Part shown: piece by piece, positions 9,647 through 50,763 of the stretch
How the letters are laid out: every line of letters starts with the position of its first letter
How positions within the stretch are numbered: the stretch's first letter is position 1
Virus record (IMG/VR): IMGVR_UViG_3300003653_000051
Location: 1 to 59,015 of that record
Direction: 5' to 3' (one strand)
Origin: a virus
Lineage: Duplodnaviria; Caudoviricetes
Length of the DNA stretch: 59,015 nt
Program-made: the position numbers and the translations under genes
The notes under the pieces: model-generated
Seen by the model: only the letters and a program-made list of their open reading frames with translations
Database searches by the model: none
What the model was told of the DNA's origin: nothing

Positions 9647-9673
9647 TGAGCTAGCCTTCCCACCTTAGCTTCC

Positions 9674-10012: not shown

Positions 10013-11154
10013 ATAAAGTTCTCTTCCTTGGCGACCTCCACTTGTGGAACCATAAGTTTGAGGGTGGCGAGCTCGTCTGTGGGATCAACCGCAGGTGCCA
10101 GGAGCTACTTGATGCCCTGGATCTTACCGTCTCGGAGGCCGTGGCCATGGGGTGCTCTGCGGTGGTCCAGGTTGGGGACTTCTTCGATCAGGCCAGACCC
10201 TCTGGGGCTCTCCTGGATGCAGCCATCCAGTTGATGCTGCGGCATCCTGTGGCGTGGCACATCATGGCGGGCAACCATGATCTTGCGGCCTTCGGAACTC
10301 CCTCTGGGTTGGCACCTCTGCGGTACATCCCCGGGATCTGTGTCTACGAACAGCCCACCCAGCTCCTTCTGTGCGGCAGACGGGTCACACTGATCCCCTA
10401 TGTAGCGCACAGCGTCCTAGAGGCGCTGGAGCTTTCCAAGGGTGTGCTAGATGGCGCATCCCTGGTGGTGATGCACTACGGGGTAGTTGCCAATCCCTCC
10501 CGTCCCGATCAGATCTCTCTGCCTCAGATTAGATCTTGGTGGGCGGAGGTCATGGGGCAGAGCAGCCGTGATCGCTTCTTCCATTGGATAGGATCTCAGT
10601 CTGTAAAGATCCTATCTGGGCATGAGCACGGGGAGCGTACGGTGGCTGAGTTCTCCATGCAGAACTCCAATATGGCTATGGGTTTGGGGAGCTTTGCCGA
10701 TCTGGACTGGAGCGCGGTGCGCTTCCCCTGGCCCCATGCTGTGTTGATGAACATGGACACCTGGGATGTTACGCCCATGAAGGTACATGGCCCTGTGTTC
10801 TGTGTCGTAGGCACAGAGGAGCCCACTTGGGATCCCAAGGAGCATATACACGAGCGTATGCTGCTCCGCGATGCAATCAATAGTCGTGGGCACGGCATGT
10901 ATATCTCCGGGGAGCCCGAGCATCAGGAGTTACTGGGCGTGCTCAAGGTCATGGGGCTGATCCAGGGGTTCCGGTTGTCACCGTCGGATGATCTGGAGGT
11001 GTGCGCTGGCCCTGGCATGTCCACTGACCCTGTGGGGTTTCAGGATCTTGAGGAGGCGATTGCGGAGGTGTTGGTGTCTCAGGGTGCGGATCTCGCGGAT
11101 GAGAAGATCCAGAGGATCTGGTCAGAGTGCATTACGCACATCAAGGAGCGTTGA
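10009..11154 (+). CDS. SbcD/Mre11-like metallophosphoesterase nuclease
   Basis: GDLH, GDFFD, GNHD, H, GHEH motifs. Confidence 0.9.
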   Translation: MNKVLFLGDLHLWNHKFEGGELVCGINRRCQELLDALDLTVSEAVAMGCSAVVQVGDFFDQARPSGALLDAAIQLMLRHPVAWHIMAGNHDLAAFGTPSGLAPLRYIPGICVYEQPTQLLLCGRRVTLIPYVAHSVLEALELSKGVLDGASLVVMHYGVVANPSRPDQISLPQIRSWWAEVMGQSSRDRFFHWIGSQSVKILSGHEHGERTVAEFSMQNSNMAMGLGSFADLDWSAVRFPWPHAVLMNMDTWDVTPMKVHGPVFCVVGTEEPTWDPKEHIHERMLLRDAINSRGHGMYISGEPEHQELLGVLKVMGLIQGFRLSPSDDLEVCAGPGMSTDPVGFQDLEEAIAEVLVSQGADLADEKIQRIWSECITHIKER

Positions 11155-34045: not shown

Positions 34046-35443
34046 TCAGGAGTCGAAGCCGTGGGCGCACACGATGGCGCGCTTCATCCGGGCGGGGGTG
34101 CCAGTGGCCGCGTCGGTACGCATGGGCCAGTCACCGTCGAAGCGCCAGGAGGTGGCCACCATGTCCTGAAGGCGGTTGAGGGGGGCGCGCATGATCAGCT
34201 TGACACGCTCCGAGGAGATCTCGATGCCGTTGTTGTTGACCTGGACATCGCCCATCTTGCCCACCATGCCCGCCTCAGTGATGAACTGGGCCGGATCCTG
34301 GTAGTACTCGTAGATCGCACCGAAACCGCTGAAGAGCATGCGATGCACCTCCATGCCGGTCGCCGTCCCATCGCGGGTCAGCTCGGGCGCGAAGGCGTCA
34401 TCCAGGCTGAAGGTGATGCCGTCCGCGGGAGCAACGGTGAGCTTGGTCGGAACCTCGTTGTTGTCCACGAAGATCACGCCCAGCATCTTGCCGATCACGA
34501 AGTCCGTGTACATGTAGTTCTCGGGACGGCCCGTGAGCATGCGCTGGATCTCAGTGTCCGCCATGAGCGCGGCGAGGGACACCGGGCCGATGTGTGCATG
34601 GTAGCAACCAGACGGATGCATCGGGATGTTGTTCCGCCGGAGCCGCATGATGCAGTTCCTGATGTCCTGAAGCCGGGGGAGGTCCGTGACACCCAGGTCA
34701 TCCACCTTGTTGCCGCCGCCGACGTAGACGATCTCCGAACGGTCCACCGACTGAACGAAGTCACGATCACCCCAGACCGCGACCGCATCCAGGATGAGCG
34801 TTCCCGGGCCGATCTCATCGCCCGACGTGCTCGGGGTGAAGCCGACCACGTTGCGAACCGTACCCGCGATGCTGATCTGGAGCGGGTTGCTGGAGCTGAC
34901 CGCCGAGAAGCGAACACGGGAGCCGTTCGTCAGGCTGGGGTTTCGCGACTTCGTGAAGCCATTGAGGCGCTTCACGACAAGGCTGGTGGACCCACCGCCT
35001 CCCTGCGCGCCGTTGGTCACCGTGGAGCCCGACTCCGCAGCGTTGTAGAAGCGGTTGCGGACCAGACGGTTGAGGGTCTGGGCAGCCTGGAGCCCGAGCT
35101 GGTGGCTGTTCCGCAGGAGCAGATCCACGATCGCCTGCACCGAGGTGGGGATGTTCGTGTCGATCGTCCCGGCGTAGGTGTTGAGCTGGGCTTCCCACTG
35201 CTCGATCGTGTAGCTCATGGGCTCCGGGTCCGTACCAGGACGGAGCGGACGGCCACTCGGCGCGATCAGACCAGGGGCCGACGCGATGTAGGTGTCACCC
35301 ACACCGGCAGGCCACGGGGAGGCCACCACGTCTCCGCGATAGATCATCGAGGGGAAGAGGGCATCATGGAACGCACGCTCCAGGAAACCCTCCTGGACGA
35401 TGGCGCGGACTTCTGGGGTGGCGATGATGTTCGAGAAATCCAT
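34046..35443 (-). CDS. major capsid protein
   Basis: 465 aa, very strong codon bias, follows the scaffold; P-domain-like C-terminus RAPLNRLQDMVATSW. Confidence 0.85.
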   Translation of the reverse strand: MDFSNIIATPEVRAIVQEGFLERAFHDALFPSMIYRGDVVASPWPAGVGDTYIASAPGLIAPSGRPLRPGTDPEPMSYTIEQWEAQLNTYAGTIDTNIPTSVQAIVDLLLRNSHQLGLQAAQTLNRLVRNRFYNAAESGSTVTNGAQGGGGSTSLVVKRLNGFTKSRNPSLTNGSRVRFSAVSSSNPLQISIAGTVRNVVGFTPSTSGDEIGPGTLILDAVAVWGDRDFVQSVDRSEIVYVGGGNKVDDLGVTDLPRLQDIRNCIMRLRRNNIPMHPSGCYHAHIGPVSLAALMADTEIQRMLTGRPENYMYTDFVIGKMLGVIFVDNNEVPTKLTVAPADGITFSLDDAFAPELTRDGTATGMEVHRMLFSGFGAIYEYYQDPAQFITEAGMVGKMGDVQVNNNGIEISSERVKLIMRAPLNRLQDMVATSWRFDGDWPMRTDAATGTPARMKRAIVCAHGFDS

Positions 35444-35505: not shown

Positions 35506-36270
35506 TCACACCATGGAGGCGGGGTTCTTGTAGCCCTTCTTGCGAAGGTACTCCTGGTACTCCGCCCTGGTCATCTCATTGGCCTGCTTTGGCTGGGACA
35601 GTGCCGCACCTTCCGTGCGTACCTCGCCCGGAGGCATACTCCTTGGAGCCCCGCCTCCGGGGGTAGAGCCCACCTCCAGCTCTTCGATCTTCCGCTCCGC
35701 CTGAGCCTGGAGAACCTGCTGGAAGATCCCAGGCTTCTTGGCCCGCAGATCATCCTTCAGGTACTTGGCCGCATCGAAGCTCTTGGCATCCGTATCCGAG
35801 AGCTTGCGGTAGTGCCCGTTGAGGTGGGACAGAGCGTAGTCGATCTCCTCGCCCTGGACCCCAGCCTCGTAGGCCATCTGCCGAAGCTGACCGTCGTTCT
35901 CCAGGACGGAGATCCGACTGCGAAGACCCTGAATCGTCTTCCGAAGCGTGACGTTCTCTGCCTGGATGGCAGCATCCGCCGCACCCCTATCCAGAGGCTT
36001 GGGGGTGGGCTTGCCGCCAGGGCCCGCCTTCATCATCGCTTCCACACCCTCAAACCCGAGGGCCTGAGCGCGCTTGTTGTACGCCTCCATGACAGAGGCA
36101 CGTCCCGCATCCCGATCCGTCTTGCGCTCCTCCGACCGTGCCTTGGCATTGGCGGAGGGGAGCGGAGCACGCGGAGGTGCCTGTACGGCCCGCTCGGCAG
36201 GTTGTTCGATGTCGGTAACAACCTCGTCGATGAGGGCCTCGGTCTCGGTGAGCTCGGTTTCGTCTTGCAT
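35506..36270 (-). CDS. capsid scaffolding protein
   Basis: Acidic N-terminus, coiled coil, KPGIF, C-terminal ANEMTRAEYQEYLRKKG. Confidence 0.75.
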   Translation of the reverse strand: MQDETELTETEALIDEVVTDIEQPAERAVQAPPRAPLPSANAKARSEERKTDRDAGRASVMEAYNKRAQALGFEGVEAMMKAGPGGKPTPKPLDRGAADAAIQAENVTLRKTIQGLRSRISVLENDGQLRQMAYEAGVQGEEIDYALSHLNGHYRKLSDTDAKSFDAAKYLKDDLRAKKPGIFQQVLQAQAERKIEELEVGSTPGGGAPRSMPPGEVRTEGAALSQPKQANEMTRAEYQEYLRKKGYKNPASMV

Positions 36271-36796: not shown

Positions 36797-37180
36797 TCAG
36801 GCTTTCTCACCGAGAACAATGTAGACCTCAGTGTCTACGGTTGCCTCTCGGGTCAGATCAATCGCGGTGATGTTCACATCATCACACCGCAGAATCAGGA
36901 TCGGGTCAACTGGCAGGCTCTGTGTCTGGCCCTGCGAGCTAGTGATGCGTGCGCGGACATAGCCCCCCGATGCACGGATGCACAGGAAGTTCACCGCACC
37001 CAGGGTGCCCAGGCTCACCTGAACCACATTATCTGTGCTCAGGGTGAGGTTGGTGGAGAGCTGCCGCTTCAGGAACACCTGCTCGTTCAGGGTGAGCACG
37101 ATGGACGGCTCCCCCGAGGGGCTACCTACCGGGTTGGCTACCGTGATCGACCCGTCAAGCAGAAGACGTTGCTGTGCCAT
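36797..37180 (-). CDS. hypothetical structural protein
   Basis: Beta-rich; TGATG-coupled start at 37180. Confidence 0.55.
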   Translation of the reverse strand: MAQQRLLLDGSITVANPVGSPSGEPSIVLTLNEQVFLKRQLSTNLTLSTDNVVQVSLGTLGAVNFLCIRASGGYVRARITSSQGQTQSLPVDPILILRCDDVNITAIDLTREATVDTEVYIVLGEKA

Positions 37181-37623
37181 CAGGTGAGCTCTCCTGCCCG
37201 CCAGAGCCATGCACCCACCAGGATGGGCTCCACTTCCGCGATCTCACCCGCCAAAGCCTGTGCGACTGCGATGGCATCCTCGGGGGCGATGCTCTTGAGC
37301 ATCTCCGGGAGGCCGTCACCCCAACCATCCACCAGCTCCAGAATCTTGTCCGCCATGTCCTCGGGAAGCTCCTGGTCATCTGCCAGGAGAATCGTGGGCT
37401 CCATCGTCTGAACCGACTCCTCGATCTGAGGAAGATGGTTCCTGGTCAGGGTCACGATGTTCTCAAGCTGCTCCGGGGACAGGGCCCCAGAGCCGCTCCC
37501 CAGAGCTTCCGCTCGGCTTGGGTCCAGCTCCTCATGGGGAACCGGATCCTCCTCGGGCCCTTGAGGGGGCTGTCCGCGAGGTGTCTGACCTCGGGACCAA
37601 GCTTGCATGTCAGGTGGTGGCAC
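37180..37623 (-). CDS. acidic hypothetical protein
   Basis: Glu/Asp-rich ORF in the head module. Confidence 0.6.
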   Translation of the reverse strand: MPPPDMQAWSRGQTPRGQPPQGPEEDPVPHEELDPSRAEALGSGSGALSPEQLENIVTLTRNHLPQIEESVQTMEPTILLADDQELPEDMADKILELVDGWGDGLPEMLKSIAPEDAIAVAQALAGEIAEVEPILVGAWLWRAGELT

Positions 37624-37938: not shown

Positions 37939-38526
37939 TCAGACCTTCGCCGCCCGAGGTGGCGGGCGAAGACCTCGGATGTGCGTCGCACCTGCCTTCA
38001 CGACACTACCAAAAGCCTTCACGGCTTCAATGGGGTGGCGGAGGGACGTGCCTGCAATCTTGGCCAGACCCGCACCGAATCGCGCCGTCTGGGCAACCTC
38101 ATGGCCTGCACTCCTAAATGCGCCAGCCACACGAGTCCCAACCGCGCTGTCGCCGTGGTGCGCTCGCATGGCAGCAGTTGCACCTTGAAGAGCAACGCCG
38201 AGTCGCTGGCGCATCGTAGTCTTCACGCCCGCTTCCGCCGCGTGCGCCTTGAATATGGCATGACCCATGCGAGCACCACCAGGGGCTGCTGCGAGTGCCC
38301 TCCCGCCCTTGTGGAGCCCATAAGCCGTAGCGGCAAGCATGGCAGCTCCGATGAGCTTGCCCTTGTGCTGCCTGAGTTTGTCGAGGACAGAGCCCTTGCG
38401 GATCATCATCCCCGAACTTCGCAGCCCCACCTTCTTCGGGTTGGCGCGGACCCACATGGTCCTCATGATGGTCTTGCCCTTGACCCTGACAGCTACCTTC
38501 TTCGCAACCAGTCCTGCTCTAGCCAT
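37939..38526 (-). CDS. leader-array protein 1 (basic; leader + hydrophobic helix)
   Basis: MARAGLVAKKVAVRVKGKTIMRTMWVR. Confidence 0.8.
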   Translation of the reverse strand: MARAGLVAKKVAVRVKGKTIMRTMWVRANPKKVGLRSSGMMIRKGSVLDKLRQHKGKLIGAAMLAATAYGLHKGGRALAAAPGGARMGHAIFKAHAAEAGVKTTMRQRLGVALQGATAAMRAHHGDSAVGTRVAGAFRSAGHEVAQTARFGAGLAKIAGTSLRHPIEAVKAFGSVVKAGATHIRGLRPPPRAAKV

Positions 38527-38528
38527 AA

Positions 38529-39350
38529 TCAGCTCACATTCCTGCGGTTCAGTAGCCCGCGCCGAGCGAAGAGTCGATCAAACTCTTTGGCGATGGGTGC
38601 GAAGTCCTTGTCGTCCCACTGCGCGTGCATGTTACCGAGCTGTCGCCACTGGTCCCCAAACGCTTTGGTGTCGTGCTGAACAGCGCCCCCCGCATGGTGG
38701 CCCACCCACTGTGCGTAGCTTCGGGCGAATAGCTCCGCAGGCATCAGAAGGTACTCCGCGCTCCGCTTGGCGTTGGGCCAGTCGTTCTTGATTGCGGCTT
38801 CATGCCGCCCCATGAGCTGCTTGGCTGCATCACTTTTATAGATGGCGGTCATCAGCCCCTTGAGCTCCTTGGAGCGGCGCATGGTGCCCATGCCCCTCAG
38901 ACCGTCCTGTCCCGACACCCCCCCAGCCCCGAATAGGTTGTGATCCAGGAAGTGCCCATACTCGTGCGCGGCGATACCCGCATGTCCCTTGGCCCACTTG
39001 GAGACTTTGATCTCAGGATCGCGGAGCATGTACATGCCCCCTGCCCCGCCGAGGGAGCCTGTGACATTCATCTTGATCTTGAGCAGATCCTTCGGGACGG
39101 TGTGGACCTGCCCGATGGCATGGACCGCAGCATCAACCCCGTGGTTGGCGGTCTTGGAGAAGATCATCCCGTAGCTAACGGAGATCCTCTCCTTGGGGTG
39201 GATTCCAGGGTTCACAACCCGCTGCTTCTTCTCCACACCCGAGCTGATACGGATGGGCTCCTGGTCCTTCACCCAGTAGGTACGGCGTGTGTCCCCCTTG
39301 GGGCCGTGCGCCATGAGCACCTTGCGATGAAGACCAGGGTGGCCGCTCAT
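38529..39350 (-). CDS. leader-array protein 2: leader + zincin metallopeptidase domain
   Basis: MSGHPGLHRK...RRTYWVK; HEYGHFLDH and ELFARSYAQW. Confidence 0.8.
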   Translation of the reverse strand: MSGHPGLHRKVLMAHGPKGDTRRTYWVKDQEPIRISSGVEKKQRVVNPGIHPKERISVSYGMIFSKTANHGVDAAVHAIGQVHTVPKDLLKIKMNVTGSLGGAGGMYMLRDPEIKVSKWAKGHAGIAAHEYGHFLDHNLFGAGGVSGQDGLRGMGTMRRSKELKGLMTAIYKSDAAKQLMGRHEAAIKNDWPNAKRSAEYLLMPAELFARSYAQWVGHHAGGAVQHDTKAFGDQWRQLGNMHAQWDDKDFAPIAKEFDRLFARRGLLNRRNVS

Positions 39351-40063
39351 CGCTGCAACCGTTCTTGCGCCCATTGGGCTGCGCGGATGATGTGCTTCTC
39401 CGTGTGACGACCTGCGAGGTATCCCCCTGCGTGTCCGCCCAGGAAGCCTCCGACGCCCGCACCCACACCGCCACCTGCCAGCCCGCCGATAGCGGTGCCC
39501 GCTACCGTGCCGAAGTGGGAGCCGATGTGGTGTGCAGCGGCTTCGCCGCCAACCTTGGTCATGTGGCCAGCCAGATCCGCCCCGATCCCACGGCGGTATG
39601 CCGTGACCGCCGCACGCGCTCCCGCTGTCCTGGTCGAAAGGGACTCACGGGCGGATGCAAACTTGGCCCTGGCAGCAGTGGCTCCATCGCCTAGATGACC
39701 GCGGACCTCCGCTCCGGTTAGATCCCGCTTCTTGTTGTGGTAGCCAGAGCTCGCACCGCCCAGTGCTGCCTTCAAGCGGTCCTTGAGGCCTTCGCCCTGG
39801 TGTAATCCATGCGCTGCGGAGGCACCTCGGAAAGCTCCGGCGATTCCATGCCCGTGCTTGTGCGCGATGTACGCGCCACCAACCAGAGCAGCTGCACCCA
39901 GAATCTTCCCGGCGTGTCTACGGAGGAAGCCTGGGCCCTTCTCTGGGCCCGCGGAGCGTAGGCCCTTCACCGTCGGGTTTGTCTTGACCCAATAGGTTCG
40001 CTTGACCGTGCCACGCTTCCCGCGGACGGTTTTGACGACCTTCTTTAGCCCAGCCCGCGCCAT
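39347..40063 (-). CDS. leader-array protein 3 (glycine zipper)
   Basis: MARAGLKKVVKTVRGKRGTVKRTYWVK; GTVAGTAIGGLAGGGVGAGVGGFLGGHAG. Confidence 0.8.
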   Translation of the reverse strand: MARAGLKKVVKTVRGKRGTVKRTYWVKTNPTVKGLRSAGPEKGPGFLRRHAGKILGAAALVGGAYIAHKHGHGIAGAFRGASAAHGLHQGEGLKDRLKAALGGASSGYHNKKRDLTGAEVRGHLGDGATAARAKFASARESLSTRTAGARAAVTAYRRGIGADLAGHMTKVGGEAAAHHIGSHFGTVAGTAIGGLAGGGVGAGVGGFLGGHAGGYLAGRHTEKHIIRAAQWAQERLQR

Positions 40064-40065
40064 GA

Positions 40066-40488
40066 TCAGCGAGGCTCCTTACTCAGCGCCATCTGTTGTC
40101 TAGTGCCCCTGTATATTCCGTGTGCTGCTGCTGCTACGCCAACCGCTGCGGCTGCTAGACCAAACTGGGCCTTATGGTCTGCGCTCATCTTGCTATCCGC
40201 CAGGTGCCGCCCCAATAGGTGTCCAGCGGTAAGCCCGACGGCACCCCCGCCTACGACGTGTGCAACACCCCCCTTGCCGATGTGAGAGCCTGCGGCAATC
40301 CCAGTACCTGCCCCCATAATCTTCATACCAATGCGAAGAAGATGCGCAGCATCCTTGTTGACCTTTTCATTATGAAGGCCCTGCATCCCGAGCTTCTTGG
40401 GGGTAGCCCTGACCCACATGGTCCTCATGATGGTCTTGCCCTTGACCCTGACAGCAACCTTCTTGGCTACCAATCCTGCTCTAGCCAT
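40066..40488 (-). CDS. leader-array protein 4 (glycine zipper)
   Basis: Leader identical to protein 1; GxxxG repeats. Confidence 0.8.
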   Translation of the reverse strand: MARAGLVAKKVAVRVKGKTIMRTMWVRATPKKLGMQGLHNEKVNKDAAHLLRIGMKIMGAGTGIAAGSHIGKGGVAHVVGGGAVGLTAGHLLGRHLADSKMSADHKAQFGLAAAAVGVAAAAHGIYRGTRQQMALSKEPR

Positions 40489-40503
40489 GATCAATTCACC
40501 TTC

Positions 40504-41154
40504 CTACTCATCATCATCTTCCGCACCAAATCGCTTGCGAGCCCGCTTGATTGCACCACGGGCGAGGGCATTCCCGATGATTGCACCTACGGCGGAGCGG
40601 CCCGTTCGGCTGGCCGTGCTGCCTTTGCCTCTCATACCCAAAGCGGCTCCGGCAAGTGTTCCTGCGTGTTCGGCAAGTTCCATGGCTACCTTGGACCTGA
40701 CCACATGCCCTGCCGCAGTGCTGGCAGTTCTCACCAGGAACTCGGCTGTCTTGGCCCTAGCCTTCTCTGTGCCCAGATGCTTGTGGTACGCCTTCGCAGT
40801 GTTGGTCCTGAGCGTTCCAGGCCCGCCCTTCCTCGCTGCCAAATCCCAGCCGCCCTTGGCACCGCGCGTTGCAGCACGGAACTGTTCCAAGAGCGAGCGG
40901 GAGCCCCCCTTCTCAAGGTGCTCGCCCAACCTCTGCTTGGCACCCTGATGTGCCCAGGTCAGTGCCTTCCGATTCCCATACGCCAACCCCGCTACCGTAG
41001 CGGCCACCACAGCCGCTCCGATGAGCTTCTTCTTGTGGCGGGACGCGAAGCCGGTCGTAGCCTCCTGGGATCGCACCCAATAGGACCGGCGGACCTGCCC
41101 GTGCTTTCCGCGGACAGACTTGGTGATCTTCTTCAGCCCTGCGTGCCCAGGCAC
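40504..41154 (-). CDS. leader-array protein 5
   Basis: MPGHAGLKKITKSVRGKHGQVRRSYWVR. Confidence 0.8.
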   Translation of the reverse strand: MPGHAGLKKITKSVRGKHGQVRRSYWVRSQEATTGFASRHKKKLIGAAVVAATVAGLAYGNRKALTWAHQGAKQRLGEHLEKGGSRSLLEQFRAATRGAKGGWDLAARKGGPGTLRTNTAKAYHKHLGTEKARAKTAEFLVRTASTAAGHVVRSKVAMELAEHAGTLAGAALGMRGKGSTASRTGRSAVGAIIGNALARGAIKRARKRFGAEDDDE

Positions 41155-41157
41155 TTC

Positions 41158-41559
41158 CTACCTCCGTGCATCCGACAGAGCCTTCACCGCATGGAACATC
41201 CGACCCACATCAATGGCGTGTGCCACGACATGGGAGGCCGTGGCGAGGTTCCGGGCAGCGAGCTTGGTCATCTTGGCCCCGACGTTGTACCCAACCTCCT
41301 GGCCAATCTTTGCTCCGGCAACCCGCCCAGCAGTATGCCCTGCGGCATACCCAAAGAGCCTGCCCACCGTACCCGCCTTGTGCTTCCCTATGGCAGCACC
41401 CGCATGGGCTCCGACGAGACTGCCCAGAGATCGCCCAAGATGATCGCCGCCCTTGGCCAGCAGATCCGCGCCCGTAGCCCGGACCCAATAGGAACGGAGG
41501 TAGGTGCCACGCTTGCCGCGCACCTTCACCTGCTTCTTCGTGAGTCCAGGTCGCGACAT
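41158..41559 (-). CDS. leader-array protein 6 (glycine zipper)
   Basis: MSRPGLTKKQVKVRGKRGTYLRSYWVR; GxxxG ladder. Confidence 0.8.
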   Translation of the reverse strand: MSRPGLTKKQVKVRGKRGTYLRSYWVRATGADLLAKGGDHLGRSLGSLVGAHAGAAIGKHKAGTVGRLFGYAAGHTAGRVAGAKIGQEVGYNVGAKMTKLAARNLATASHVVAHAIDVGRMFHAVKALSDARR

Positions 41560-41560
41560 A

Positions 41561-42208
41561 TTAGAAGAGGAGGGGCTTCCTACGGATCTGCGTACCATCA
41601 TAGGGTGCGTTCTGTTGTGTCCGAATAGCGTGTGCGTCTGGCATCACACTCGGCCTCGCCGCGATGACCTCCTGCCTGCGTATCGCATTCCTGTGCCCCT
41701 GCATCTCGGCCTGGTATTCCTTCATGACATCATGAGGACTCATTGAGTGGAGTCCGCGGACGTTTGAGTTGGCAGACCCGCTCTGGGTTCGATTGCCGTT
41801 GCGGGATGCAGTGCCCGTACCCGGAGCCATGGCACGCCCGATGGACCTGCCTGCGATGGCACCGCTGATAGCGCCAGTGACCGCGCCGAATACGGCACCC
41901 ATCGTACCTACCCGCGCGGTGTTGTAGCCGATGAGGACAGCTTTACCCGCCGTCGGCACTACACGCGCGGCACCTGAGTCCCGGATCAGACCGTGTGCGG
42001 CATGCCCCCCTGCAACGGCACCCGCAGTGCCGAAAGTGGTTGCACCCGCCACAGCGCCGAACAGAGCACCGGCCAGGGCACCACGACGACCGTACTTGGT
42101 CTTCTTGGCACCTGCATCCTCTGACTTCACCATCACAGAACGCTGGTAGGTCTTGCCGCCCTTGCCACGGACGGTCTTCTTGACCTTGCGTAGATTTGAT
42201 TTAGCCAT
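41561..42208 (-). CDS. leader-array protein 7 (glycine zipper)
   Basis: MAKSNLRKVKKTVRGKGGKTYQRSVMVK; GALAGALFGAVAG. Confidence 0.8.
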   Translation of the reverse strand: MAKSNLRKVKKTVRGKGGKTYQRSVMVKSEDAGAKKTKYGRRGALAGALFGAVAGATTFGTAGAVAGGHAAHGLIRDSGAARVVPTAGKAVLIGYNTARVGTMGAVFGAVTGAISGAIAGRSIGRAMAPGTGTASRNGNRTQSGSANSNVRGLHSMSPHDVMKEYQAEMQGHRNAIRRQEVIAARPSVMPDAHAIRTQQNAPYDGTQIRRKPLLF

Positions 42209-42223
42209 GATGTGCCATCCTAC

Positions 42224-42607
42224 CTAGCGCATGACATGCGGCTTGATCTTGTTGTCCCGCATGTATGCATCGTAGTCGTGGCTCATATTAGGCTTGATCT
42301 TGTTGATCCGCATGTACGCATCGTGCGGGTGCTCGTGTGCGGCGGGCGCGCTGCTGCGAGATGCAGTGCCAGAACCCAGATGCTTGTGCGCCATGTACGC
42401 TGCCGCTGCCGTCAGGGCGGTAGCTGCGAGGATCCTCCCCCCGTGCCGCCCAAGGATGCCGTGGGTGGTAGATCCTTCCGACTTCAGAGCCCTCTTGGTC
42501 TTCTTGGAGCCCGCATCCGCAGACTTCACCATCACGGAGCGTTGGTAGGTCTTGCCACCCTTACCACGGACGGTCTTCTTGACCTTGTGTAAGCTGTGCT
42601 TGGCCAT
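42224..42607 (-). CDS. leader-array protein 8
   Basis: MAKHSLHKVKKTVRGKGGKTYQRSVMVK; C-terminal DAYMRxNKIKP x2. Confidence 0.8.
   Translation of the reverse strand: MAKHSLHKVKKTVRGKGGKTYQRSVMVKSADAGSKKTKRALKSEGSTTHGILGRHGGRILAATALTAAAAYMAHKHLGSGTASRSSAPAAHEHPHDAYMRINKIKPNMSHDYDAYMRDNKIKPHVMR
42240..42324. repeat. imperfect direct repeat (34 nt x2, period 51)
   Basis: ggcttgatcttgttg(tc/at)ccgcatgta(t/c)gcatcgt at 42240 and 42291. Confidence 0.8.
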
Positions 42608-42622
42608 GTGCGTGCCCCACGC

Positions 42623-43135
42623 CTAGCGCATGGCGCGCTGGTCGCGGTGAAGCTCGTCAACGACCGTGCGACCCTTTGGCCCGCCCAGCGATTCCGGGTT
42701 CGGCGAGCGCAGATCCTCGCGGATCCTGTCTGCGATGTGCCCCAACTTGGCACCGACCTTGGCATCCCCGATGGCGTGACCGATGCGCGCACGCAAGCCG
42801 ATGTGTGCGTCCGTGGCCCCCGCAGCCCGCGCCAGCCTGTTGAATGCCCCCGAGACCTTCATTGAGCCGTGCGCGGCCAGAGCAGCGCCCACGATCTTCC
42901 CGGCGTTCTTGTGCGCGTAGTGTCCGCCCTTCGCCAGCGCCGCAGCCGCAACGACCGCCCCAGCGATCTTCGCGCCGCGCTTGAGGCCGACCTCGTGCGC
43001 CCTGGCGAACTTCCCGACGCGCTTGCCAGCGCCCTTCACGGCGGCAGTGGCGCGCACCCAGTAGCTGCGCTTCACCATCCCGTGCTTGCCCTTGACCGTC
43101 TTCTGGACCTTCTTCAGACCTGCATGCGACCCCAT
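42623..43135 (-). CDS. leader-array protein 9
   Basis: MGSHAGLKKVQKTVKGKHGMVKRSYWVR. Confidence 0.8.
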   Translation of the reverse strand: MGSHAGLKKVQKTVKGKHGMVKRSYWVRATAAVKGAGKRVGKFARAHEVGLKRGAKIAGAVVAAAALAKGGHYAHKNAGKIVGAALAAHGSMKVSGAFNRLARAAGATDAHIGLRARIGHAIGDAKVGAKLGHIADRIREDLRSPNPESLGGPKGRTVVDELHRDQRAMR

Positions 43136-43228: not shown

Positions 43229-43513
43229 TCAGATGATGCGTTCCATATCCTCAGACTGTGCATCCATGAGGAGCTGTGCCCTTTGCTTCCGGGTCTCCTG
43301 CCAGGATCGCAGCCCCAGGAGCCTGTTCCAGATGCAGTACCAGAGCATCCAGAGCGCCAGACGGAGTGCCAGACCCTCGGATAGATGGGCACGGACGACA
43401 CAGGATGCTGGGTCGCGGGGGGCGGAGAAGAAGAGCTCCACCATCCCCCGTGATGGGATCGCCGCTACCTCCAGGTAGCCGTCGGTCTTTCGGAAGATGG
43501 AATGGTGGATCAT
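43229..43513 (-). CDS. hypothetical protein
   Basis: ATGA-coupled to the MTase; hydrophobic C-terminal helix. Confidence 0.55.
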   Translation of the reverse strand: MIHHSIFRKTDGYLEVAAIPSRGMVELFFSAPRDPASCVVRAHLSEGLALRLALWMLWYCIWNRLLGLRSWQETRKQRAQLLMDAQSEDMERII

Positions 43514-44424
43514 CGGACGATGCCCTGACCCCGTAGTGCCTTCAGGATGGCCGTCTCTGTGGAGTTCTTTCCCTCGATGGCGGCATCCTGCCAGCGCGCT
43601 CCGATCTCCTCAGAGGCGGGGTAGTTCATCCAGAGAACCTCGGTGGCTGTTGTGCTGCCCTCTCGGGCGGTTGTGGTGATGGCGCGATCGAAGCTCACAC
43701 GTCTCCAGCTCTGATAGAGCCTGTCGTAAAGTACACCACCATAGCCCGACACCATGATCCGTGCCCCCGCTCCTGCGGCGGTGTGATTAGCCTGTGCCAG
43801 TGTCTCGTGCTGGTCTGTAGTCATCTCGTGCTGATACCCCTCGTTGACTACCCGAGATTCCGCATGATAGGGCGGGTCCTCGTAGATGAACGCATGGAGA
43901 TGCTGGTACTGCTGGATCATGTGTATGGCATCCTGATTATACATGCAGACACCCAACATTCTGTCTGCATACTGTTGGAACTGCCGGAGTCGGGATTCTG
44001 ACCCTGCTGCATGGGAGGCACCCGGTATGGGGCGACGCCAACCCACCGTGGGGGTTTGCATCCCGCTGAAGCTCTGTCTGGAGCGAACCCAAACCCTCCG
44101 GGCTACCTCCAGCTCATCCTCGAAGTTGTCCTCCGAGAACCGCTTGCAGACTTGGTGCTCTTCAAGCGCATAGGGTGTGAGCTCACAAACCCGGATCAGC
44201 TCATCCGTTCTTGTTTGGAGAACCCGGTAGAAGGTGATGATGCCCTTGTTCAGGTCGTTGATTACCTGGACATGGAAAAGCTCCTTGGGCACCTGGAAGA
44301 ACACACCGCCTCCCCCAAAGAAGGGCTCCACATAGAGTGTTGGACCCTTGGGAAAGTGGGGGATGATGTGCCGTGCAATCAGCTTCTTACCGCCAAAGTA
44401 ATGAAGCGGCCCATCCAAACTCAT
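43510..44424 (-). CDS. DNA N6-adenine methyltransferase (Dam/D12 class), copy A
   Basis: YFGGK, EPFFGGGGV, INDLN, DPPY. Confidence 0.92.
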   Translation of the reverse strand: MSLDGPLHYFGGKKLIARHIIPHFPKGPTLYVEPFFGGGGVFFQVPKELFHVQVINDLNKGIITFYRVLQTRTDELIRVCELTPYALEEHQVCKRFSEDNFEDELEVARRVWVRSRQSFSGMQTPTVGWRRPIPGASHAAGSESRLRQFQQYADRMLGVCMYNQDAIHMIQQYQHLHAFIYEDPPYHAESRVVNEGYQHEMTTDQHETLAQANHTAAGAGARIMVSGYGGVLYDRLYQSWRRVSFDRAITTTAREGSTTATEVLWMNYPASEEIGARWQDAAIEGKNSTETAILKALRGQGIVR

Positions 44425-44468: not shown

Positions 44469-45386
44469 TCATCGGACGATGCCCCGCCCGCGTAGTGCCT
44501 TCAGGATGCCCTTCTCCGCGGCGCTCTTCCCCTTGGGCGTGGAGCTCTGCCAGTGGGCTCCAATCTCCTCAGAAGCTGGGTAGTTCATCCAGAGCACCTC
44601 GGTCTTGAGAACCTGCCCATCTTTCGGGTTGGTTATCATGTTGTATCGTGTGAACTCCGTCCGCCTCCAGTTCTTGTATGTCTGATCGTAGAAGGCTCCG
44701 CCATAGCCTGAGATCATGATCTTGGCCCCCAACTTAGTAGCAGCTTCGTTGGCATCAAACAGACCCAGATGCTGGGCTTCTGTCATCTCGTACTGGTAAC
44801 CACCAGACGAACTGCGAGATTCTATGTGGTAGGGTGGGTCTTCGTAGATGAACGCACCGGGCTTGGCGTACCTGGACACGAGCTGTGTGGCGTCTTCACA
44901 GTCAATGTGTACACTACGGAAGCGCGCAGCATAATCTCGTAGGTGGCGTAGTTGCACCTCTGTAGAATCACTCTGCGTGTGATTTACACCTACACGCCTC
45001 CAACTCACAGTCTCAGTCTGGTCACCTCCGAAACTCTGCCTTGCCCTGACCCAGACTCTCCTCGCCACCTCCAGTTCGTCCTCTGGGTTGTCCTCCGAGA
45101 ACCTCTTACATGCCCGATGCTCTTCGAGCGCGTAGGGTGTGAGTTCGCAAACCCGGATCAGCTCATCTACCCGCGTCCTTAGAACCCGGTAAAACGTGAC
45201 AATGCTCTTGTTCAGGTCGTTGATTACCTGGACATGGAAAAGCTCCTTGGGCATCTGGAAGAACACACCGCCACCCCCGAAGAAGGGCTCCACATAGAGC
45301 GTGGCACCCTTCGGGAAGTGGGGAATGATGTGCTGTGCGGTGGTCTTCTTGCCGCCGTAGTATGGGAGTGGCCCATCTAAACTCAT
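44469..45386 (-). CDS. DNA N6-adenine methyltransferase (Dam/D12 class), copy B
   Basis: YYGGK, EPFFGGGGV, INDLN, DPPY; start ATG 45386. Confidence 0.92.
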   Translation of the reverse strand: MSLDGPLPYYGGKKTTAQHIIPHFPKGATLYVEPFFGGGGVFFQMPKELFHVQVINDLNKSIVTFYRVLRTRVDELIRVCELTPYALEEHRACKRFSEDNPEDELEVARRVWVRARQSFGGDQTETVSWRRVGVNHTQSDSTEVQLRHLRDYAARFRSVHIDCEDATQLVSRYAKPGAFIYEDPPYHIESRSSSGGYQYEMTEAQHLGLFDANEAATKLGAKIMISGYGGAFYDQTYKNWRRTEFTRYNMITNPKDGQVLKTEVLWMNYPASEEIGAHWQSSTPKGKSAAEKGILKALRGRGIVR

Positions 45387-45411
45387 GATCCGTCGTCCCT
45401 CTTCCTGCTGA

Positions 45412-46347
45412 TCAGACCGAGCGTTTACGCCCCGCGCCAGCGCCCTTGGCCTTGCGACCCGCGGCTGTTTTGTCGCTCTGGTAGAATGTGCCACCACCAA
45501 CCTTGGTGTAGTAGCCCCCGCCTTTCGTCTTCTTGGTCAGTTTGGCCTCATCCCGCCCGTAGGAATGATCTCTGGTGGCCTTCTGGCGTGCGTCATGTTC
45601 GGCATTTCGCTTCGCCGCACCCTCGGGGCTCTGTGCCTTCATGGTGGCACGGATGGCCTTCTGGCGATCCTGGACGCCCTTGGTCTTGACGGTCTCTACC
45701 GCCTTCTTGATGTTCGCCAGCTTCTGCGCCTCCGCTACCCTGGCAGTGCTGGTGTGCCCTGCCACTTCCCGGAGGCGGCGGATTCGATCAACGTGTGCTG
45801 CCTCCCTCTGTCCCTGGCGATGCTCGTGGATCGCCTTGTCCTGGGTGATCCGGCTATGGGCACGCTCCTGGCCCTTGCTCTCGTGCCTCCGTGTCAGCTC
45901 CCCCGTTGCCCCCGCATGGATGGCAGCATGGTCGTGACCCCCGTACCTCTCCGCGTGGTGGGCCACCTCCCGCAGTTCGTTGTGGGACATGTGAGCTACT
46001 TCAGGATCACCACGGCGTACCTTGGCTACGTTCGTGAAAATCCGCTGGTCATTCTTCAGGTTGCTCATGTGGGACGCCAGGGCATGACCCGCGAAGGTCA
46101 TGAGCGTCCCCATGATGAAGTTCCCGCGTCGGAAGTTCCGGCTGGTGGCGGAGCCCAGCCACTTGCTGATGCCCGTACCTACGGAGTGCCGCGCCGAGGC
46201 CCGTCCTGCATCCGAATGGATGTAGTCACGCACGCTGGGCATGTTCCCGTGCAGCGCGTGGTAGTCGGCGCGATTGGTCTGGGCGTAGGCTTTCGCCCCC
46301 GTCGCAAGGTGCGTGGCCGTGCTGAGATGATCACCGAAAACGCCCAT
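45412..46347 (-). CDS. basic His/Arg/Ala-rich hypothetical protein
   Basis: 311-aa ORF; composition like the array proteins. Confidence 0.7.
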   Translation of the reverse strand: MGVFGDHLSTATHLATGAKAYAQTNRADYHALHGNMPSVRDYIHSDAGRASARHSVGTGISKWLGSATSRNFRRGNFIMGTLMTFAGHALASHMSNLKNDQRIFTNVAKVRRGDPEVAHMSHNELREVAHHAERYGGHDHAAIHAGATGELTRRHESKGQERAHSRITQDKAIHEHRQGQREAAHVDRIRRLREVAGHTSTARVAEAQKLANIKKAVETVKTKGVQDRQKAIRATMKAQSPEGAAKRNAEHDARQKATRDHSYGRDEAKLTKKTKGGGYYTKVGGGTFYQSDKTAAGRKAKGAGAGRKRSV

Positions 46348-46388: not shown

Positions 46389-46796
46389 TCAGTTCCCGGT
46401 GTACCCGGTCACCAGACGGTCTGGGGTAGGGCCGGTGTCGATCTCGACGAAGCACCAGCTCGGGTGGCGGGCAGCTTCCTTCTGTGCCTGCTTGGAGCAG
46501 AGGGAGCAGGCGTAGACGGCCCCGATGCGGAGGAAGTAGCCCATCTTGGTCTGGGTCCGCATCTGGGCGTACTTCTCCGGGTCCGTCTTCAGGAGCACCA
46601 GGAGATTGGGGTCGCGCTTCAGCATCTCCGCCTCCTCCCCGTAGGAGTGGATGGAGGTCATCGGGGGGCCGCCACAGCCCGTACACTTCGCACCCAGAGG
46701 GAACGCGGTGGATGCGTGCAGCTCCTGCGGGGTCATCCGCCCGTCCATGAACTGCTTGCGGTGGATGATCGGGCTCTTCTTTACTTCTTGTCCCAT
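46389..46796 (-). CDS. hypothetical Zn-binding protein
   Basis: CTGC...CSLC; strong codon bias. Confidence 0.65.
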   Translation of the reverse strand: MGQEVKKSPIIHRKQFMDGRMTPQELHASTAFPLGAKCTGCGGPPMTSIHSYGEEAEMLKRDPNLLVLLKTDPEKYAQMRTQTKMGYFLRIGAVYACSLCSKQAQKEAARHPSWCFVEIDTGPTPDRLVTGYTGN

Positions 46797-47264: not shown

Positions 47265-47828
47265 ATGCGGATCATCGGGTTGGACATCGCCTTCTGTAAT
47301 CTGGGTGTGGTGTCCTGTCATCTGTTGGGCGGTGTGCTTACTCTGACGGGAGCGGAGGCCATCTACACTGGCAAGGGCAAGGAGGGGCTGTCGGACACAG
47401 CGGACAACCTACGGCGGTCCCAGCTTCTCCATGCACGTCTCAAGGAGGTGATGGAGAGGACGGAGCCGCAGGTGGTGGTGGTGGAGTCTCAGAGCTGGCC
47501 GAGGATCAACCCTGCCAGCTCGATCAAGATGGCCCATGCCTGGGGAGCGATCAGCCCTCTTCTGGTTGGGCTTCCTCTTCTGGAGGTGACGCCACAGGCG
47601 CTGAAGCTGTTTGTGGCGGGGGACCGCTCGGCAACGAAGCTCCAGGTTCACCAGGGGGTGCTTCGTCGGATGGCAGAGCCTCTTCAGACCCAGCAACTTG
47701 TGGACTGGGGCGTCCTGAAGCGGGCTCGCCAGGAGCATTGTTGGGACGCCCTGGGGGCTGTCCTAGCGGTCCTCCCTTCCCAGGAGTTCCAGGCGCTTCT
47801 GCGCCTCCATCTCCCGCCATCGCTTTAG
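47265..47828 (+). CDS. ruvC: RuvC-like Holliday junction resolvase
   Basis: MRIIGLDI, VVVVES, TPQALK..VAG...ATK, HCWDALG; GGAGG RBS. Confidence 0.88.
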   Translation: MRIIGLDIAFCNLGVVSCHLLGGVLTLTGAEAIYTGKGKEGLSDTADNLRRSQLLHARLKEVMERTEPQVVVVESQSWPRINPASSIKMAHAWGAISPLLVGLPLLEVTPQALKLFVAGDRSATKLQVHQGVLRRMAEPLQTQQLVDWGVLKRARQEHCWDALGAVLAVLPSQEFQALLRLHLPPSL

Positions 47829-49764
47829 CCGCCATGGCTGGCGAGCTGATCGCGGCGTTCGCCACGAAGAGCTCCGCGAACTTCGCCCTGTACTGGATCA
47901 TCGTCAGGTCGCCATCCGGGAGGGCACCCAGCCCCAGGGCTCCCATGCGGTACTCGTTCAGGGTCACAATCCCCGCATCCAACCCCGCCTTCCATGCAGC
48001 CGGAGTCATGCTTGGCCCCGTCTTCGGTGCAGACGGACTCGGTGCAGCTCCAGTATCCTCGGCGGCGGGATCGGCACCCTCATCCGCTCCTGGATCTTCT
48101 CCTTCGGCAGCAGGCTCCGCACCTGGATCTGCTCCGGCATCCTCGGGGGTTGCTGCCGCATCTGCCTGAGCTGCCAGATTCGCCTCTTCCTGCTTCTTGA
48201 GATCGTGCATCTCCTTCAGCGGGTCCATGCTGACATAGGGGGCGTAGAACTTGATGGCGGTGGCCTTGGTCATCACCTCCGCATCCTTGGCGGTGGTGCA
48301 GATCCGAAGGGCGGTTTCTACATCGGACAGTGTGGGGCGGAAGTACGGGGGCCACTTCACCTCGCAGATCGTGCCCTTCCCCATGTCACGGGGGACCTCC
48401 AGCGTATCCCCATCCGGTTGCTGCACCACCTTCGGGGGTGTGTAGACCTTCCCCCGCACAAACCGAGTCGTGCCATCTGGGCCGGGAACCTCCCGGATCG
48501 CCGTCCACATCCTCACCGCTTGAAGCAGCTTCTGGCAGAGGCGGATGATCATGGGGCCATACTGCTCCCGCAGATCGTCCGCCCGCTCCAGCATGGAGGA
48601 GTAAACCCGCTCGATCTCCAGGGCTGTCTTCTCCCCAGAGTTCTGAAAGAGCACCTGATCCGGGACGCACTGGGCCAGACGGTACGCCCGATCCTCCAGC
48701 TCCTTCGCGACCGTGATCCCCAGGGTTGGGCCGGAGCCTGCCAGCTCCAGGTAGGAGGCGCTGCTGCCGATGGGGATTTTCAGTGCGTTGTCGGAGCCCT
48801 TGGCGAGCGTGCCCAGGGATGCGTCGGTGGTGAGGACCAGGGTGGGGTCCAGGTTCTTGATGGTCCCGGAGTAAACCTCCGTCATCAGGTTGTCGATTGC
48901 CTGGACCATCTCGTAGATGCCCGCACAGTCCGGCTCCCCATCCATATCCGCCCCCTCGGAGATGTTCTGGACCCACTCGTAGGGGACGAAGCCCAGGCCG
49001 TGACGGACCACGTTCTTCTGGATGTAGTCCCAGGCCGGTGCCTTCTGCTTGCACTTCACGGGCACCCAGACCGTATCCGTCTCCGTGTCGATCACCCTGC
49101 GATACCAGTACCAGATGGGCTTCCAGTTTCCCTCCAGGTCCTTCTCCTCCTTGACGTAGGTGTACTCAATCGTCAGGCGCTGAAGATCCTGGGAGCCCTT
49201 CCCCATGAACTCCGCCGTGGCCCAGCGCGGGTCCAACGCCTCAAACTGACAGCGCCCCTGGACGAACTTGAACCCGGTGCAGCCCGATCCCATGCCGCCG
49301 CCGTAGTTCCGGGTCTGGATCATGGCAGACCAGAACTGCCCGAAGACTAGCTGTGCGTTGAGCCAGTCCTCCGTGTCCTCATCCCCAGGAACACCCACCC
49401 TGGGCTGCTTCCGGTTGGAGAAGAGTAGCCCAGTGAACCGGCTCACGATGTTCCGAACAATCCCGTAGGGGGCTACAGGTCTGCGGAACTCTCTGGGTAG
49501 GCCGTCCCCTACCACCGCGTAGCCCGGGGGGAGGTAGCCGTTGCGGGAGATGCCGTCCCTGGCAGGCCCAGACATGACGGCCCTACCCTCCCAATCCACG
49601 CCCTTGCCCATGTGCTCCTGGACCTTGAAGAAGCTCCAGCGTGTGTTGAGCTCCATCTGACGTGCCGTGAGCTTCAGGTGCTTGCCCCCTGTCGCAGCGG
49701 TGTCGTTGTCGCCCAGCGCAGACATGGCCCCACCAGAATCTGATGGGTCTCGTTGAATCGGCAT
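47551..49764 (-). CDS. portal protein with long acidic/Pro-rich C-terminal extension
   Basis: IVSRFTGLLF, HGLGFVPYEWVQN, EKTALEIERVYSSM...DLREQYG, VKWPPYF. Confidence 0.82.
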   Translation of the reverse strand: MPIQRDPSDSGGAMSALGDNDTAATGGKHLKLTARQMELNTRWSFFKVQEHMGKGVDWEGRAVMSGPARDGISRNGYLPPGYAVVGDGLPREFRRPVAPYGIVRNIVSRFTGLLFSNRKQPRVGVPGDEDTEDWLNAQLVFGQFWSAMIQTRNYGGGMGSGCTGFKFVQGRCQFEALDPRWATAEFMGKGSQDLQRLTIEYTYVKEEKDLEGNWKPIWYWYRRVIDTETDTVWVPVKCKQKAPAWDYIQKNVVRHGLGFVPYEWVQNISEGADMDGEPDCAGIYEMVQAIDNLMTEVYSGTIKNLDPTLVLTTDASLGTLAKGSDNALKIPIGSSASYLELAGSGPTLGITVAKELEDRAYRLAQCVPDQVLFQNSGEKTALEIERVYSSMLERADDLREQYGPMIIRLCQKLLQAVRMWTAIREVPGPDGTTRFVRGKVYTPPKVVQQPDGDTLEVPRDMGKGTICEVKWPPYFRPTLSDVETALRICTTAKDAEVMTKATAIKFYAPYVSMDPLKEMHDLKKQEEANLAAQADAAATPEDAGADPGAEPAAEGEDPGADEGADPAAEDTGAAPSPSAPKTGPSMTPAAWKAGLDAGIVTLNEYRMGALGLGALPDGDLTMIQYRAKFAELFVANAAISSPAMAAKAMAGDGGAEAPGTPGKGGPLGQPPGRPNNAPGEPASGRPSPQVAGSEEALPSDEAPPGEPGASLPSGPPPQTASAPVASPPEEEAQPEEG

Positions 49765-50095: not shown

Positions 50096-50763
50096 GCCGT
50101 GCGGGGCTGCCCAAGATCTCCTGGACCAAACTCGGTGTCACCTCCCCAGCTCCAGATGTTACACCTGCGGTTGGTGGGGCCAAAGCAACCCTGACCCAAA
50201 TCCGGCAGCAACACCCGCCACTCCTCCGTGGTGGCCAGACCACATCCTGGGCCCAGGGATTCGATCAGCGCGAAGCTGCCCAGGAGCAAAAGGAGGCGGA
50301 GGCTGCCCTCGCTTCCCGGCAGGAGCAGCTTCAGGCCCTGGATGATGAGACCACCGTTCGTCGTCTCAACAGACGGATTGCTATTGGGTTTGGGGCTGCT
50401 GGGATGGGGCTGCTGAAGACCCTCCAGACAACAGCGAAGCTACTGGAGGATCGGGTCAGCTTGAAGGGGTCCGACATGTCCATGAAGGAGATCAGGGACA
50501 CCATCCAGGTTCTCGGAGCCACCATCCTGAAGTCCCAGGCCGCTATGGAAGCCGCTGCCCGTACCGAACGCTTCATGGTCCGCAAACCGCTGGATAGTGG
50601 CGAGGGGGAGCCCGACGATCTGGCCGACATGAACGAGGAGGGTGCCATGCTCATCCTCAACAACTTGGCCAAGAGCCTGGGCAATCTCACCAGGAAGAGC
50701 CACATCATCCCCGCAGAAGGTGAACTCGTGTCTGAGAAGATCCCAACCCCGGAGATCCTGTGA
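50092..50763 (+). CDS. putative terminase small subunit
   Basis: Helical protein coupled directly upstream of TerL. Confidence 0.5.
   Translation: MSRAGLPKISWTKLGVTSPAPDVTPAVGGAKATLTQIRQQHPPLLRGGQTTSWAQGFDQREAAQEQKEAEAALASRQEQLQALDDETTVRRLNRRIAIGFGAAGMGLLKTLQTTAKLLEDRVSLKGSDMSMKEIRDTIQVLGATILKSQAAMEAAARTERFMVRKPLDSGEGEPDDLADMNEEGAMLILNNLAKSLGNLTRKSHIIPAEGELVSEKIPTPEIL

Follow-up and report, generated by a model that had tools for sequence, protein, structure and literature searches.

A conserved polybasic N-terminal leader on arrays of phage head-module proteins as a candidate head-incorporation tag

Nine array genes and their common leader

The window analysed here is a 59,015-bp linear virus record from IMG/VR (estimated completeness 67%); the term denotes this whole stretch of DNA throughout. 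Its head module contains an array of nine minus-strand open reading frames (ORFs) at positions 37939–43135, with a spacing of −4 to +15 nt. Each of the nine opens with a variant of one polybasic leader of approximately 27 residues, so the original prediction of nine packed ORFs with a common leader holds at every N-terminus. A six-frame search of the whole window with the pattern R[ST]x[WM]V[RK] returns ten matches, nine of which are the nine N-termini; the tenth, at 46688–46705, is unrelated. The leader is discussed below as a candidate tag for the incorporation of proteins into the phage head.

Leader protein 1 (42623–43135, 170 aa) has a pI of 11.5 and a net charge of +24. The leader of protein 2 (42224–42607, 127 aa, net +18), which ends in RSVMVK, is near-identical to that of protein 3 (41561–42208, 215 aa, net +24), a protein with six GxxxGxxxG motifs. 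Protein 4 (41158–41559, 133 aa; ORF open to 41601) contains ten of these motifs and has a sub-threshold match to Gly-zipper_Omp (E 0.0015); its ATG start overlaps the stop codon of protein 3. Protein 5 (40504–41154, 216 aa, net +28) starts with GTG. The leaders of protein 6 (40066–40488, 140 aa) and protein 9 (37939–38526, 195 aa, pI 12.0, net +31) are identical in their amino acids. Protein 7 (39347–40063, 238 aa, net +27), with nine GxxxGxxxG motifs, has orthologues in most related arrays. The conserved core member of the arrays is protein 8 (38529–39350, 273 aa; ORF open to 39374), in which a disordered linker connects a divergent leader to a zincin metallopeptidase domain with the motifs HEYGHFLDH ... 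ELFAR. It is the only one of the nine with a recognizable domain, and the others are formed by the leader and one tail. All nine proteins are strongly basic (pI 10.0–12.0, net +16 to +31) and contain 22–38% Gly+Ala.

The consensus of the leader is M-x-R-A-G-L-K-K-V-x-K-T-V-R-G-K-x-G-x-V-R-R-S-Y-W-V-K-A. In the alignment of the nine proteins, identity per column averages 56% in the 37 leader columns and 26% along the full length, and L, R and V are invariant among the leaders. The leader is conserved by selection at the protein level, since the invariant Arg is written by five codons (CGC, CGT, CGG, AGG and CGA); comparison of 288 codon pairs in the leader core gave 76 synonymous and 139 non-synonymous differences. 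Genes 6 and 9, and likewise genes 2 and 3, are 83–100% identical in DNA over the leader and approximately 50% identical directly beyond it, and these mosaic boundaries fit the pattern expected under modular exchange of leaders or tails.

The boundaries of the leader are sharp across the family. Information content, calculated from 226 proteins, is approximately 3–4 bits per position within the leader (lowest 2.2) and then falls to approximately 1 bit. Relative to the end of the YWV[KR] core, the high-information stretch runs from position −24 to position +1, and about half of the leader positions have a consensus residue with a frequency of at least 0.9. The motif is located within the first 70 residues in 226 of 231 hit proteins and ends at residue 24–30 in 222 of these 226; the residue right after the leader is small (A 0.60, S 0.28). 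Because the information drops after approximately 27 positions and the end of the motif is fixed in this way, the leader constitutes a discrete module confined strictly to the N-terminus. Its conservation greatly exceeds that of the tails behind it and also that of the head genes, the capsid proteins of these phages being 51–82% identical to that of the window.

The AlphaFold2 model of protein 8 predicts the leader as a β-hairpin with strands at residues 7–16 and 19–28, followed by a disordered linker; the mean predicted local distance difference test (pLDDT) values of the first three 10-residue blocks are 56–67. In the model of the relative P0221, the predicted strands span residues 5–13 and 19–27, the linker is again disordered, and the block means of pLDDT are 64–68. 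The β-hairpin of the original prediction is thus recovered in two models, with only moderate pLDDT in the leader itself. A co-fold of the capsid protein, the putative scaffold, the acidic protein encoded next to the array, and leader residues 1–50 scored 0.00/0.00; it gives no answer and is counted neither way. A Tat or Sec signal was dropped as an explanation of the leader, as the order of its basic and hydrophobic parts does not fit and its hydrophobicity is low. A KOW-like motif was dropped as well, Pfam giving no match at E ≤ 1. A short variant of the leader, MxRxGL[VI]KK...RGRRTYW[VI], is encoded at L008:4542–5087, L009 from 11726, and L010 from 12252, where it is fused to a conserved basic, apparently helical domain of approximately 160 aa (PADLSK[LF]VGTTKYYA...) to which Pfam has no match.

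Distribution of the leader family, its tails and its enzymatic members

Neither Pfam nor PHROGs has a family match to the leader among the nine window proteins, and the leader profile matches PDB sequences at chance level only (best uS11, E 0.27), in line with the earlier remark that the motif was not recognized as a named family. The literature, covered largely at the level of abstracts, yielded no description of the module or of anything similar; a small unnamed domain of this kind may be present in the supplementary alignments of Iyer et al. 2017. The module and its family therefore appear to be undescribed so far.

A 34-position profile of the nine leaders was searched exhaustively against 1.84 billion cluster representatives (clusters at 50% identity). 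It matched 275 representatives at E ≤ 1e-3, 22 of them at E ≤ 1e-10, and among the 150 best hits the match starts at residue 1–6 in 146; the clear exception is an 855-aa protein. A word-indexed search returned 140 proteins; among the 120 listed, Pfam domains and informative names are absent throughout. No leader match was obtained by tblastn of protein 7 and of a stretch of P0171 against 50,697 phage records. A pattern search of genome contigs from 185,579 species in GTDB gave 84 matches, none of them confirmed, and the first hits of protein 7 in the ESM Atlas score 0.80, which is chance level (pLDDT of its model 0.60, predicted template modelling score 0.27).

Thirteen IMG/VR loci contain 68 leader hits, 1–10 per locus and all 68 on the structural strand, and metagenomes provide 24 further leader loci. 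Array size varies by phage between 3 and 10 genes, and the sequences of the members vary too. The gene order portal, basic protein, methyltransferase, array, zincin, acidic protein, scaffold, and capsid is preserved in 7/7 viral loci analysed and in the two sufficiently long metagenome loci, L024 and L026. All leader loci belong to one clade of uncultured myophages. Four relatives have, in addition to the array, single leader genes at other junctions of the virion operon (L007:17635–18105, L010:17415–17897, L019:10001–10438, and L047 near 9512–10684). These extra copies are positioned between connector genes, ahead of the probable tape measure gene, or between baseplate genes, and nowhere else; the corresponding sites of the window are empty. 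Every leader gene seen is part of a late structural operon and is encoded on the structural strand.

The 270 family members collected provided 266 tails of at least 40 residues; those of the window are 98–244 aa long. The tails form 68 sequence clusters, of which the largest has 87 members and 40 are singletons. The net charge is positive in all 266 (minimum +5, median +18), and most tails are rich in Gly and Ala, with a median Gly+Ala of 0.34. The motif GxxxGxxxG occurs 548 times in the tails versus 134.5 ± 12.8 times in 200 shuffles (maximum 174), a four-fold enrichment, and is present in 141 of the 266 tails and in five of the nine from the window. Three window proteins match Gly-zipper_Omp (PF13488) with 18.8, 16.0 and 11.0 bits, and the relative P0148 with 22.6 bits, all short of the curated cut-off of 25. 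Weak profile matches also link array tails to glycine-rich stretches of tape-measure PHROGs (167 and 794). The hydropathy of the nine proteins (Kyte-Doolittle, 19-residue windows) reaches a maximum of 1.54, below the usual transmembrane value of 1.6. Pfam searches of the tails that are not Gly/Ala-rich, and of the 311-aa basic and 94-aa proteins of the neighborhood, gave nothing above cut-off. The original prediction spoke of diverse cargo and proposed a profile search of the leader with a record of its neighborhood and cargo. The search returned the 275 clusters, the neighborhood is kept in the loci analysed, and the cargo belongs mostly to one compositional class: the diversity is true of sequence and not of kind, since all 266 tails are polycationic and GxxxGxxxG is enriched in them.

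The zincin member is present in nine of nine complete related arrays. Residues H129, E130, H133, D136 and E206 are invariant in all eight zincin orthologues, as are the motifs HEYGHFLDH and ELFAR. Protein 8 has the pattern of the polyvalent metallopeptidase (MPTase) that Iyer et al. 2017 (PMC5512222) describe as widespread in phages, in which HExxH is followed by an Asp at a distance of three residues and, farther on, by a Glu, which in protein 8 is placed on the next helix. The Pfam family MPTase-PolyVal has no match to protein 8 at E ≤ 1. Six of the eight orthologues match phrog_4529, annotated as 'minor head protein and DNA pilot' (best E 4.6e-12). The AlphaFold2 model of protein 8 (pLDDT 83.6) matches BFVD entry A0A6J5MVE0, 'Phage head morphogenesis domain', with E 2.4e-12 and TMq 0.66; weaker BFVD matches are named 'Large polyvalent protein-associated domain-containing protein' and 'PolyVal ADP-Ribosyltransferase'. 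Solved zincin structures are matched weakly by the model. Among cultured phages, relatives of the zincin were found only in Akkermansia phages, where the domain forms the C-terminal part of a 557-aa 'head morphogenesis' protein in which Pfam detects no family. The leader of protein 8 takes the place of the head-morphogenesis part in the relatives of the zincin.

In P0221 and P0235, the leader is fused to a domain resembling ADP-ribosyltransferases (ARTs). Candidate R-S-E type motifs (YRG, SFT[TE]S and E-x-E) are present in both sequences and in the fragment P0234. The Pfam family DRAT is matched at E 0.002, under its cut-off, and the best fold matches of the model (pLDDT 71, from a 3-row alignment), none with an E as low as 1e-3, are ExoS (prob 0.97), Rhs ART toxins, ART2.2, and ParT. 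A PDB sequence search with the ART alignment returned low-complexity matches only. Another relative, P0124, has a Lys/Ala/Pro-rich tail.

P0171 (855 aa) and P0232 (689 aa), encoded on unrelated low-GC contigs, combine an InPase domain (PF18823) and weak sigma-70-like matches with a leader-like motif, RPGLVxKK[IV]TVxG...WV, that occurs internally in one or two copies. Since these motifs are internal, the putative hairpin module can also occur inside multidomain proteins of apparent virion type. The locus found with P0232 (L022) shares the InPase domain only and contains no leader-like motif. Iyer et al. 2017 (PMC5512222) list InPase among the domains of packaged phage polyvalent proteins.

The head module around the array

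The array lies between the portal gene (47551–49764, minus strand, 737 aa) and the major capsid gene (34046–35443, minus strand, 465 aa), and matches of their products to phrog_145 (E 1.2e-10) and phrog_1357 (E 2.7e-9), respectively, bear out the predicted placement. The minus-strand gene at 35506–36270 adjoins the capsid gene and encodes a putative scaffolding protein of charged, helical-type composition. Position and composition fit the scaffold label that the gene had received; the Pfam and PHROGs scans provide no family match behind it. Approximately 11.3 kb separate the portal gene from the putative scaffold gene. The interval starts with two small ORFs, a 311-aa polycation, two D12 methyltransferases, a 94-aa ORF, and the array; toward the scaffold, the array is followed by a small ORF, a strongly acidic protein of approximately 145 aa, and two β-rich ORFs. 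The nearest cultured relatives of the capsid protein are those of Streptomyces phage Kromp (31% identity) and Ralstonia phage Raharianne (26%). In cultured phages with related capsid proteins, portal and capsid genes are only 1–2 kb apart and the array is absent.

The conserved 311-aa polycation (45412–46347, minus strand) lacks the leader, is rich in His and Lys/Arg, has a net charge of +27, and matches no Pfam or PHROG family. Two tandem genes for D12-class adenine DNA methyltransferases (43510–44424 and 44469–45500, minus strand) lie inside the head module, and related phages have one methyltransferase copy at the same place. The methyltransferases of the window and of its relatives share a conserved basic C-terminal tail of the type E-[KS]-A-L-L-K-x-L-R; kinship of these tails with the leader was dropped, the likeness being superficial. 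It is conceivable that the head-module methyltransferase is packaged, as is DarB of phage P1.

Directly downstream of the array is the gene of the conserved strongly acidic protein (37180–37608, minus strand; approximately 142–147 aa, net −22, pI 4.1). The protein has an invariant hydrophobic C-terminal motif (VEPILVGAWLWRAGEL-like) and no family match. It is possibly a partner of the array proteins, such as a chaperone for the polycations, an adaptor, or a second scaffold. After the portal gene, a conserved 135-aa protein (46389–46796, minus strand) without a family match contains two CxxC pairs, which may form a zinc ribbon.

Matches to a baseplate wedge protein (phrog_6, E 8.7e-36) and, weakly, to a sheath mark the window phage as contractile-tailed. 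A large terminase match lies inside the 873-aa ORF at 50760–53381 on the plus strand; it covers only residues ~452–854, so that either the N-terminal half has no explanation or translation begins within the ORF. The single weak lysin-like gene of the window lies apart from the leader genes. Nothing in the window matches Rfam. A scan for promoters and terminators gave no enrichment and no minus-strand site within the array, and neither a prohead protease nor a MuF domain was detected among the head-module ORFs scanned.

Possible functions of the leader and comparison with known systems

The module with its N-terminal position, the arrays and their synteny, the composition of the tails, and the zincin with its fold and relatives are seen directly, and from them we infer packaging, a binding partner, cleavage, and ejection of the array proteins. 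We hypothesize that the leader hairpin is a head-incorporation tag that loads the array proteins into the virion, a reading to which we give an even chance. It is favored because leader genes occur in the virion operon only, because the leader is much better conserved than the sequence behind it and stands at the head-morphogenesis position of the zincin relatives, and because the enzymes attached to it, zincin and ART-like, resemble known packaged or injected phage proteins. Each protein would consist of a 27-residue polybasic hairpin, a flexible basic linker, and a swappable tail. The hairpin would bind an abundant, conserved component of the procapsid, such as the scaffold, the inner capsid surface, or an adaptor, and would thereby bring every member of the array into the head, the zincin among them. 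There, the polycations may act as counter-ions interspersed with the packaged DNA, and the other members may be processed by the zincin loaded along with them. At infection, the loaded proteins would leave the head together with the DNA; the tails would be DNA-associated polycations, perhaps membrane-active once ejected.

A more far-reaching version of this hypothesis, which we hold to be possible and less probable than head loading as such, regards the hairpin as a portable capsid-loading tag that replaces the MuF domain. The array would then constitute a 'distributed polyvalent protein', with polycations and enzymes that are encoded by separate genes, addressed by the tag, and hypervariable as a set. 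The zincin would trim this arsenal inside the head or after injection, and its delivery with the DNA would blunt host defenses or breach a membrane.

Several observations weigh against head loading by the leader. The leader family is known from genes alone, and no cultured phage with the leader turned up among the 50,697 phage records searched by tblastn. The synteny evidence is phylogenetically non-independent, because all loci come from one phage clade. The hairpin is modelled at moderate confidence only, and the predicted folds of protein 8 and of the ART-like domain match solved structures weakly, none at E ≤ 1e-3. Most tails are not recognizable as effectors by Pfam or PHROGs, and the uniform tail charge could reflect binding of the entire protein, together with its leader, to DNA or anionic membranes. 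Cleavage after loading, as in phage T4, has no candidate enzyme except the zincin, since the head-module scan detected no prohead protease.

One alternative overlaps with the tag hypothesis and differs from it in the role of the leader only: the array may encode protamine- or histone-like internal proteins, in which the hairpin itself binds DNA and the array condenses, neutralizes, or coats the packaged genome. We consider this unlikely. The high pI and charge of the nine proteins, the positive charge of every tail, the Lys/Ala/Pro-rich tail of P0124, and the leaderless polycation in the same gene block all agree with it, as do the lysines by which T4 internal proteins touch DNA phosphates, as described in PMC3012670. 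Non-specific DNA binding would, however, leave unexplained why some 27 residues, including G, L, Y, W and V, are near-invariant and strictly N-terminal, and zincin and ART-like enzymes bear the same leader. Moreover, phage procapsids form before DNA is packaged, and a DNA-binding leader alone would not place the proteins in them. The protamine-like alternative, already named in the original prediction, is kept alive by the uniformly polycationic, Gly/Ala-rich tails and ranks below the tag.

More doubtful is the explanation that the proteins are not packaged and act on membranes late in infection, in lysis as holin-like proteins, in superinfection exclusion, or in envelope remodelling, with the aromatic, polybasic hairpin anchored to anionic lipids and the glycine zippers inserted in the membrane. 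The excess of GxxxGxxxG over shuffled tails and the sub-threshold matches to Gly-zipper_Omp and to the glycine-rich segments of tape-measure PHROGs would suit such a role. The hydropathy maximum, however, stays under the transmembrane value, nine paralogues are many for lysis, the genes are located in the head module away from the weak lysin-like gene, and the relatives of the zincin are head-morphogenesis and polyvalent proteins. Membrane activity following ejection is compatible with the head-loading tag.

It is highly improbable that the array encodes precursors of bacteriocins or of ribosomally synthesized and post-translationally modified peptides (RiPPs), whose leader the zincin would remove to free Gly-rich cationic peptides acting outside the cell. 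Tandem genes with a conserved leader, a variable 'core', and one protease in the array resemble such systems, and the small residue after the leader is of the kind found at many processing sites. Cores of RiPPs and bacteriocins are, however, typically much shorter than the window tails; the neighboring ORFs scanned gave structural, methyltransferase, or no matches and none to modifying or export proteins, within a coverage of the window that was not exhaustive for transporters. The zincin itself bears the leader, and the phage head operon context is conserved in all loci. Finally, that the leader has no peptide function and the 5' ends are alike through recent duplication, gene conversion, or a nucleotide signal such as a translation initiation region can practically be set aside: recent exchange of the segment accounts for pairs 6/9 and 2/3, but the leader DNA of the other copies is 25–72% identical with the key residues kept by synonymous codons, the same peptide recurs in 275 clusters on many contigs, and conservation ends exactly at the protein-level boundary, so that family breadth, boundary, and codon evidence largely refute it.

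The selection of phage proteins for packaging into the head is well understood in very few systems, mainly the capsid targeting sequence (CTS) of T4, the Dar proteins of P1, and MuF fusions. If the leader is a head-loading tag, its 27 residues would provide a simple bioinformatic marker for candidate packaged or injected proteins in metagenomes and might also serve to direct foreign proteins into capsids. The uniform positive charge and the glycine zippers of the tails suggest virion proteins of a class, DNA-associated or membrane-active, of which we found no description in the literature. Should the proteins prove not to be packaged, an N-terminal peptide of very strong conservation would still call for an explanation.

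Of the known systems, the internal proteins of T4 (IPI, IPII, IPIII and Alt), which are dissimilar, mostly basic proteins sharing a short N-terminal sequence, come closest. Their targeting signal is approximately 10 residues long, and Alt, an ART, is among the targeted cargo. The leader described here is longer (approximately 27 residues), polybasic, and modelled as a hairpin, and, unlike in T4, no prohead protease was found. The precedent cited in the original prediction is nevertheless apt: as described in PMC3012670, the T4 proteins are a diverse set with only the capsid targeting sequence in common, by which they are guided into the scaffolding core, and related phages differ in the make-up of the set. 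The array has the same two properties, a shared N-terminal sequence on unrelated proteins and a polymorphic locus (68 tail clusters, 3–10 genes). None of the nine leaders has a PHROG or Pfam match indicating homology to the T4 system, whose sequences were not aligned directly.

The MuF and polyvalent proteins, in the account of PMC5512222, resemble the array in the zincin motif and in the fold match to a 'head morphogenesis domain' and to polyvalent proteins. The ART-like and InPase partners of the leader are typical polyvalent domains, and DNA adenine methylase, another polyvalent domain in that account, is here encoded in the same gene block without the leader. In contrast to one giant polypeptide, the array consists of separate small tagged proteins, most of them without an enzyme domain. 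No window protein has the two to fifteen effector domains per polypeptide of polyvalent proteins; P0171 and P0232 are multidomain. Pfam finds no MuF domain in the nine proteins or in the neighbors scanned, and only the domain C-terminal to the MuF part is shared.

Encapsulin targeting peptides, in the accounts used here, are likewise short terminal peptides on different cargo of an HK97-fold shell. They are usually C-terminal and bind a shell pocket, whereas here the capsid is that of a phage, the tag is N-terminal and polybasic, and its binding is putative. The glycine zippers of tape measure proteins and of Gly-zipper_Omp share the Gly/Ala-rich segments with repeated GxxxG spacing. The array proteins differ from them in being small, strongly cationic, and mostly encoded in the head module rather than the tail module, and from Gly-zipper_Omp also in that all matches are below the curated cut-off. 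The system is best filed under tag-directed loading of internal head proteins, as in T4, with an unrelated, longer, and apparently structured tag and an unusual cargo of uniformly polycationic, glycine-zipper proteins.

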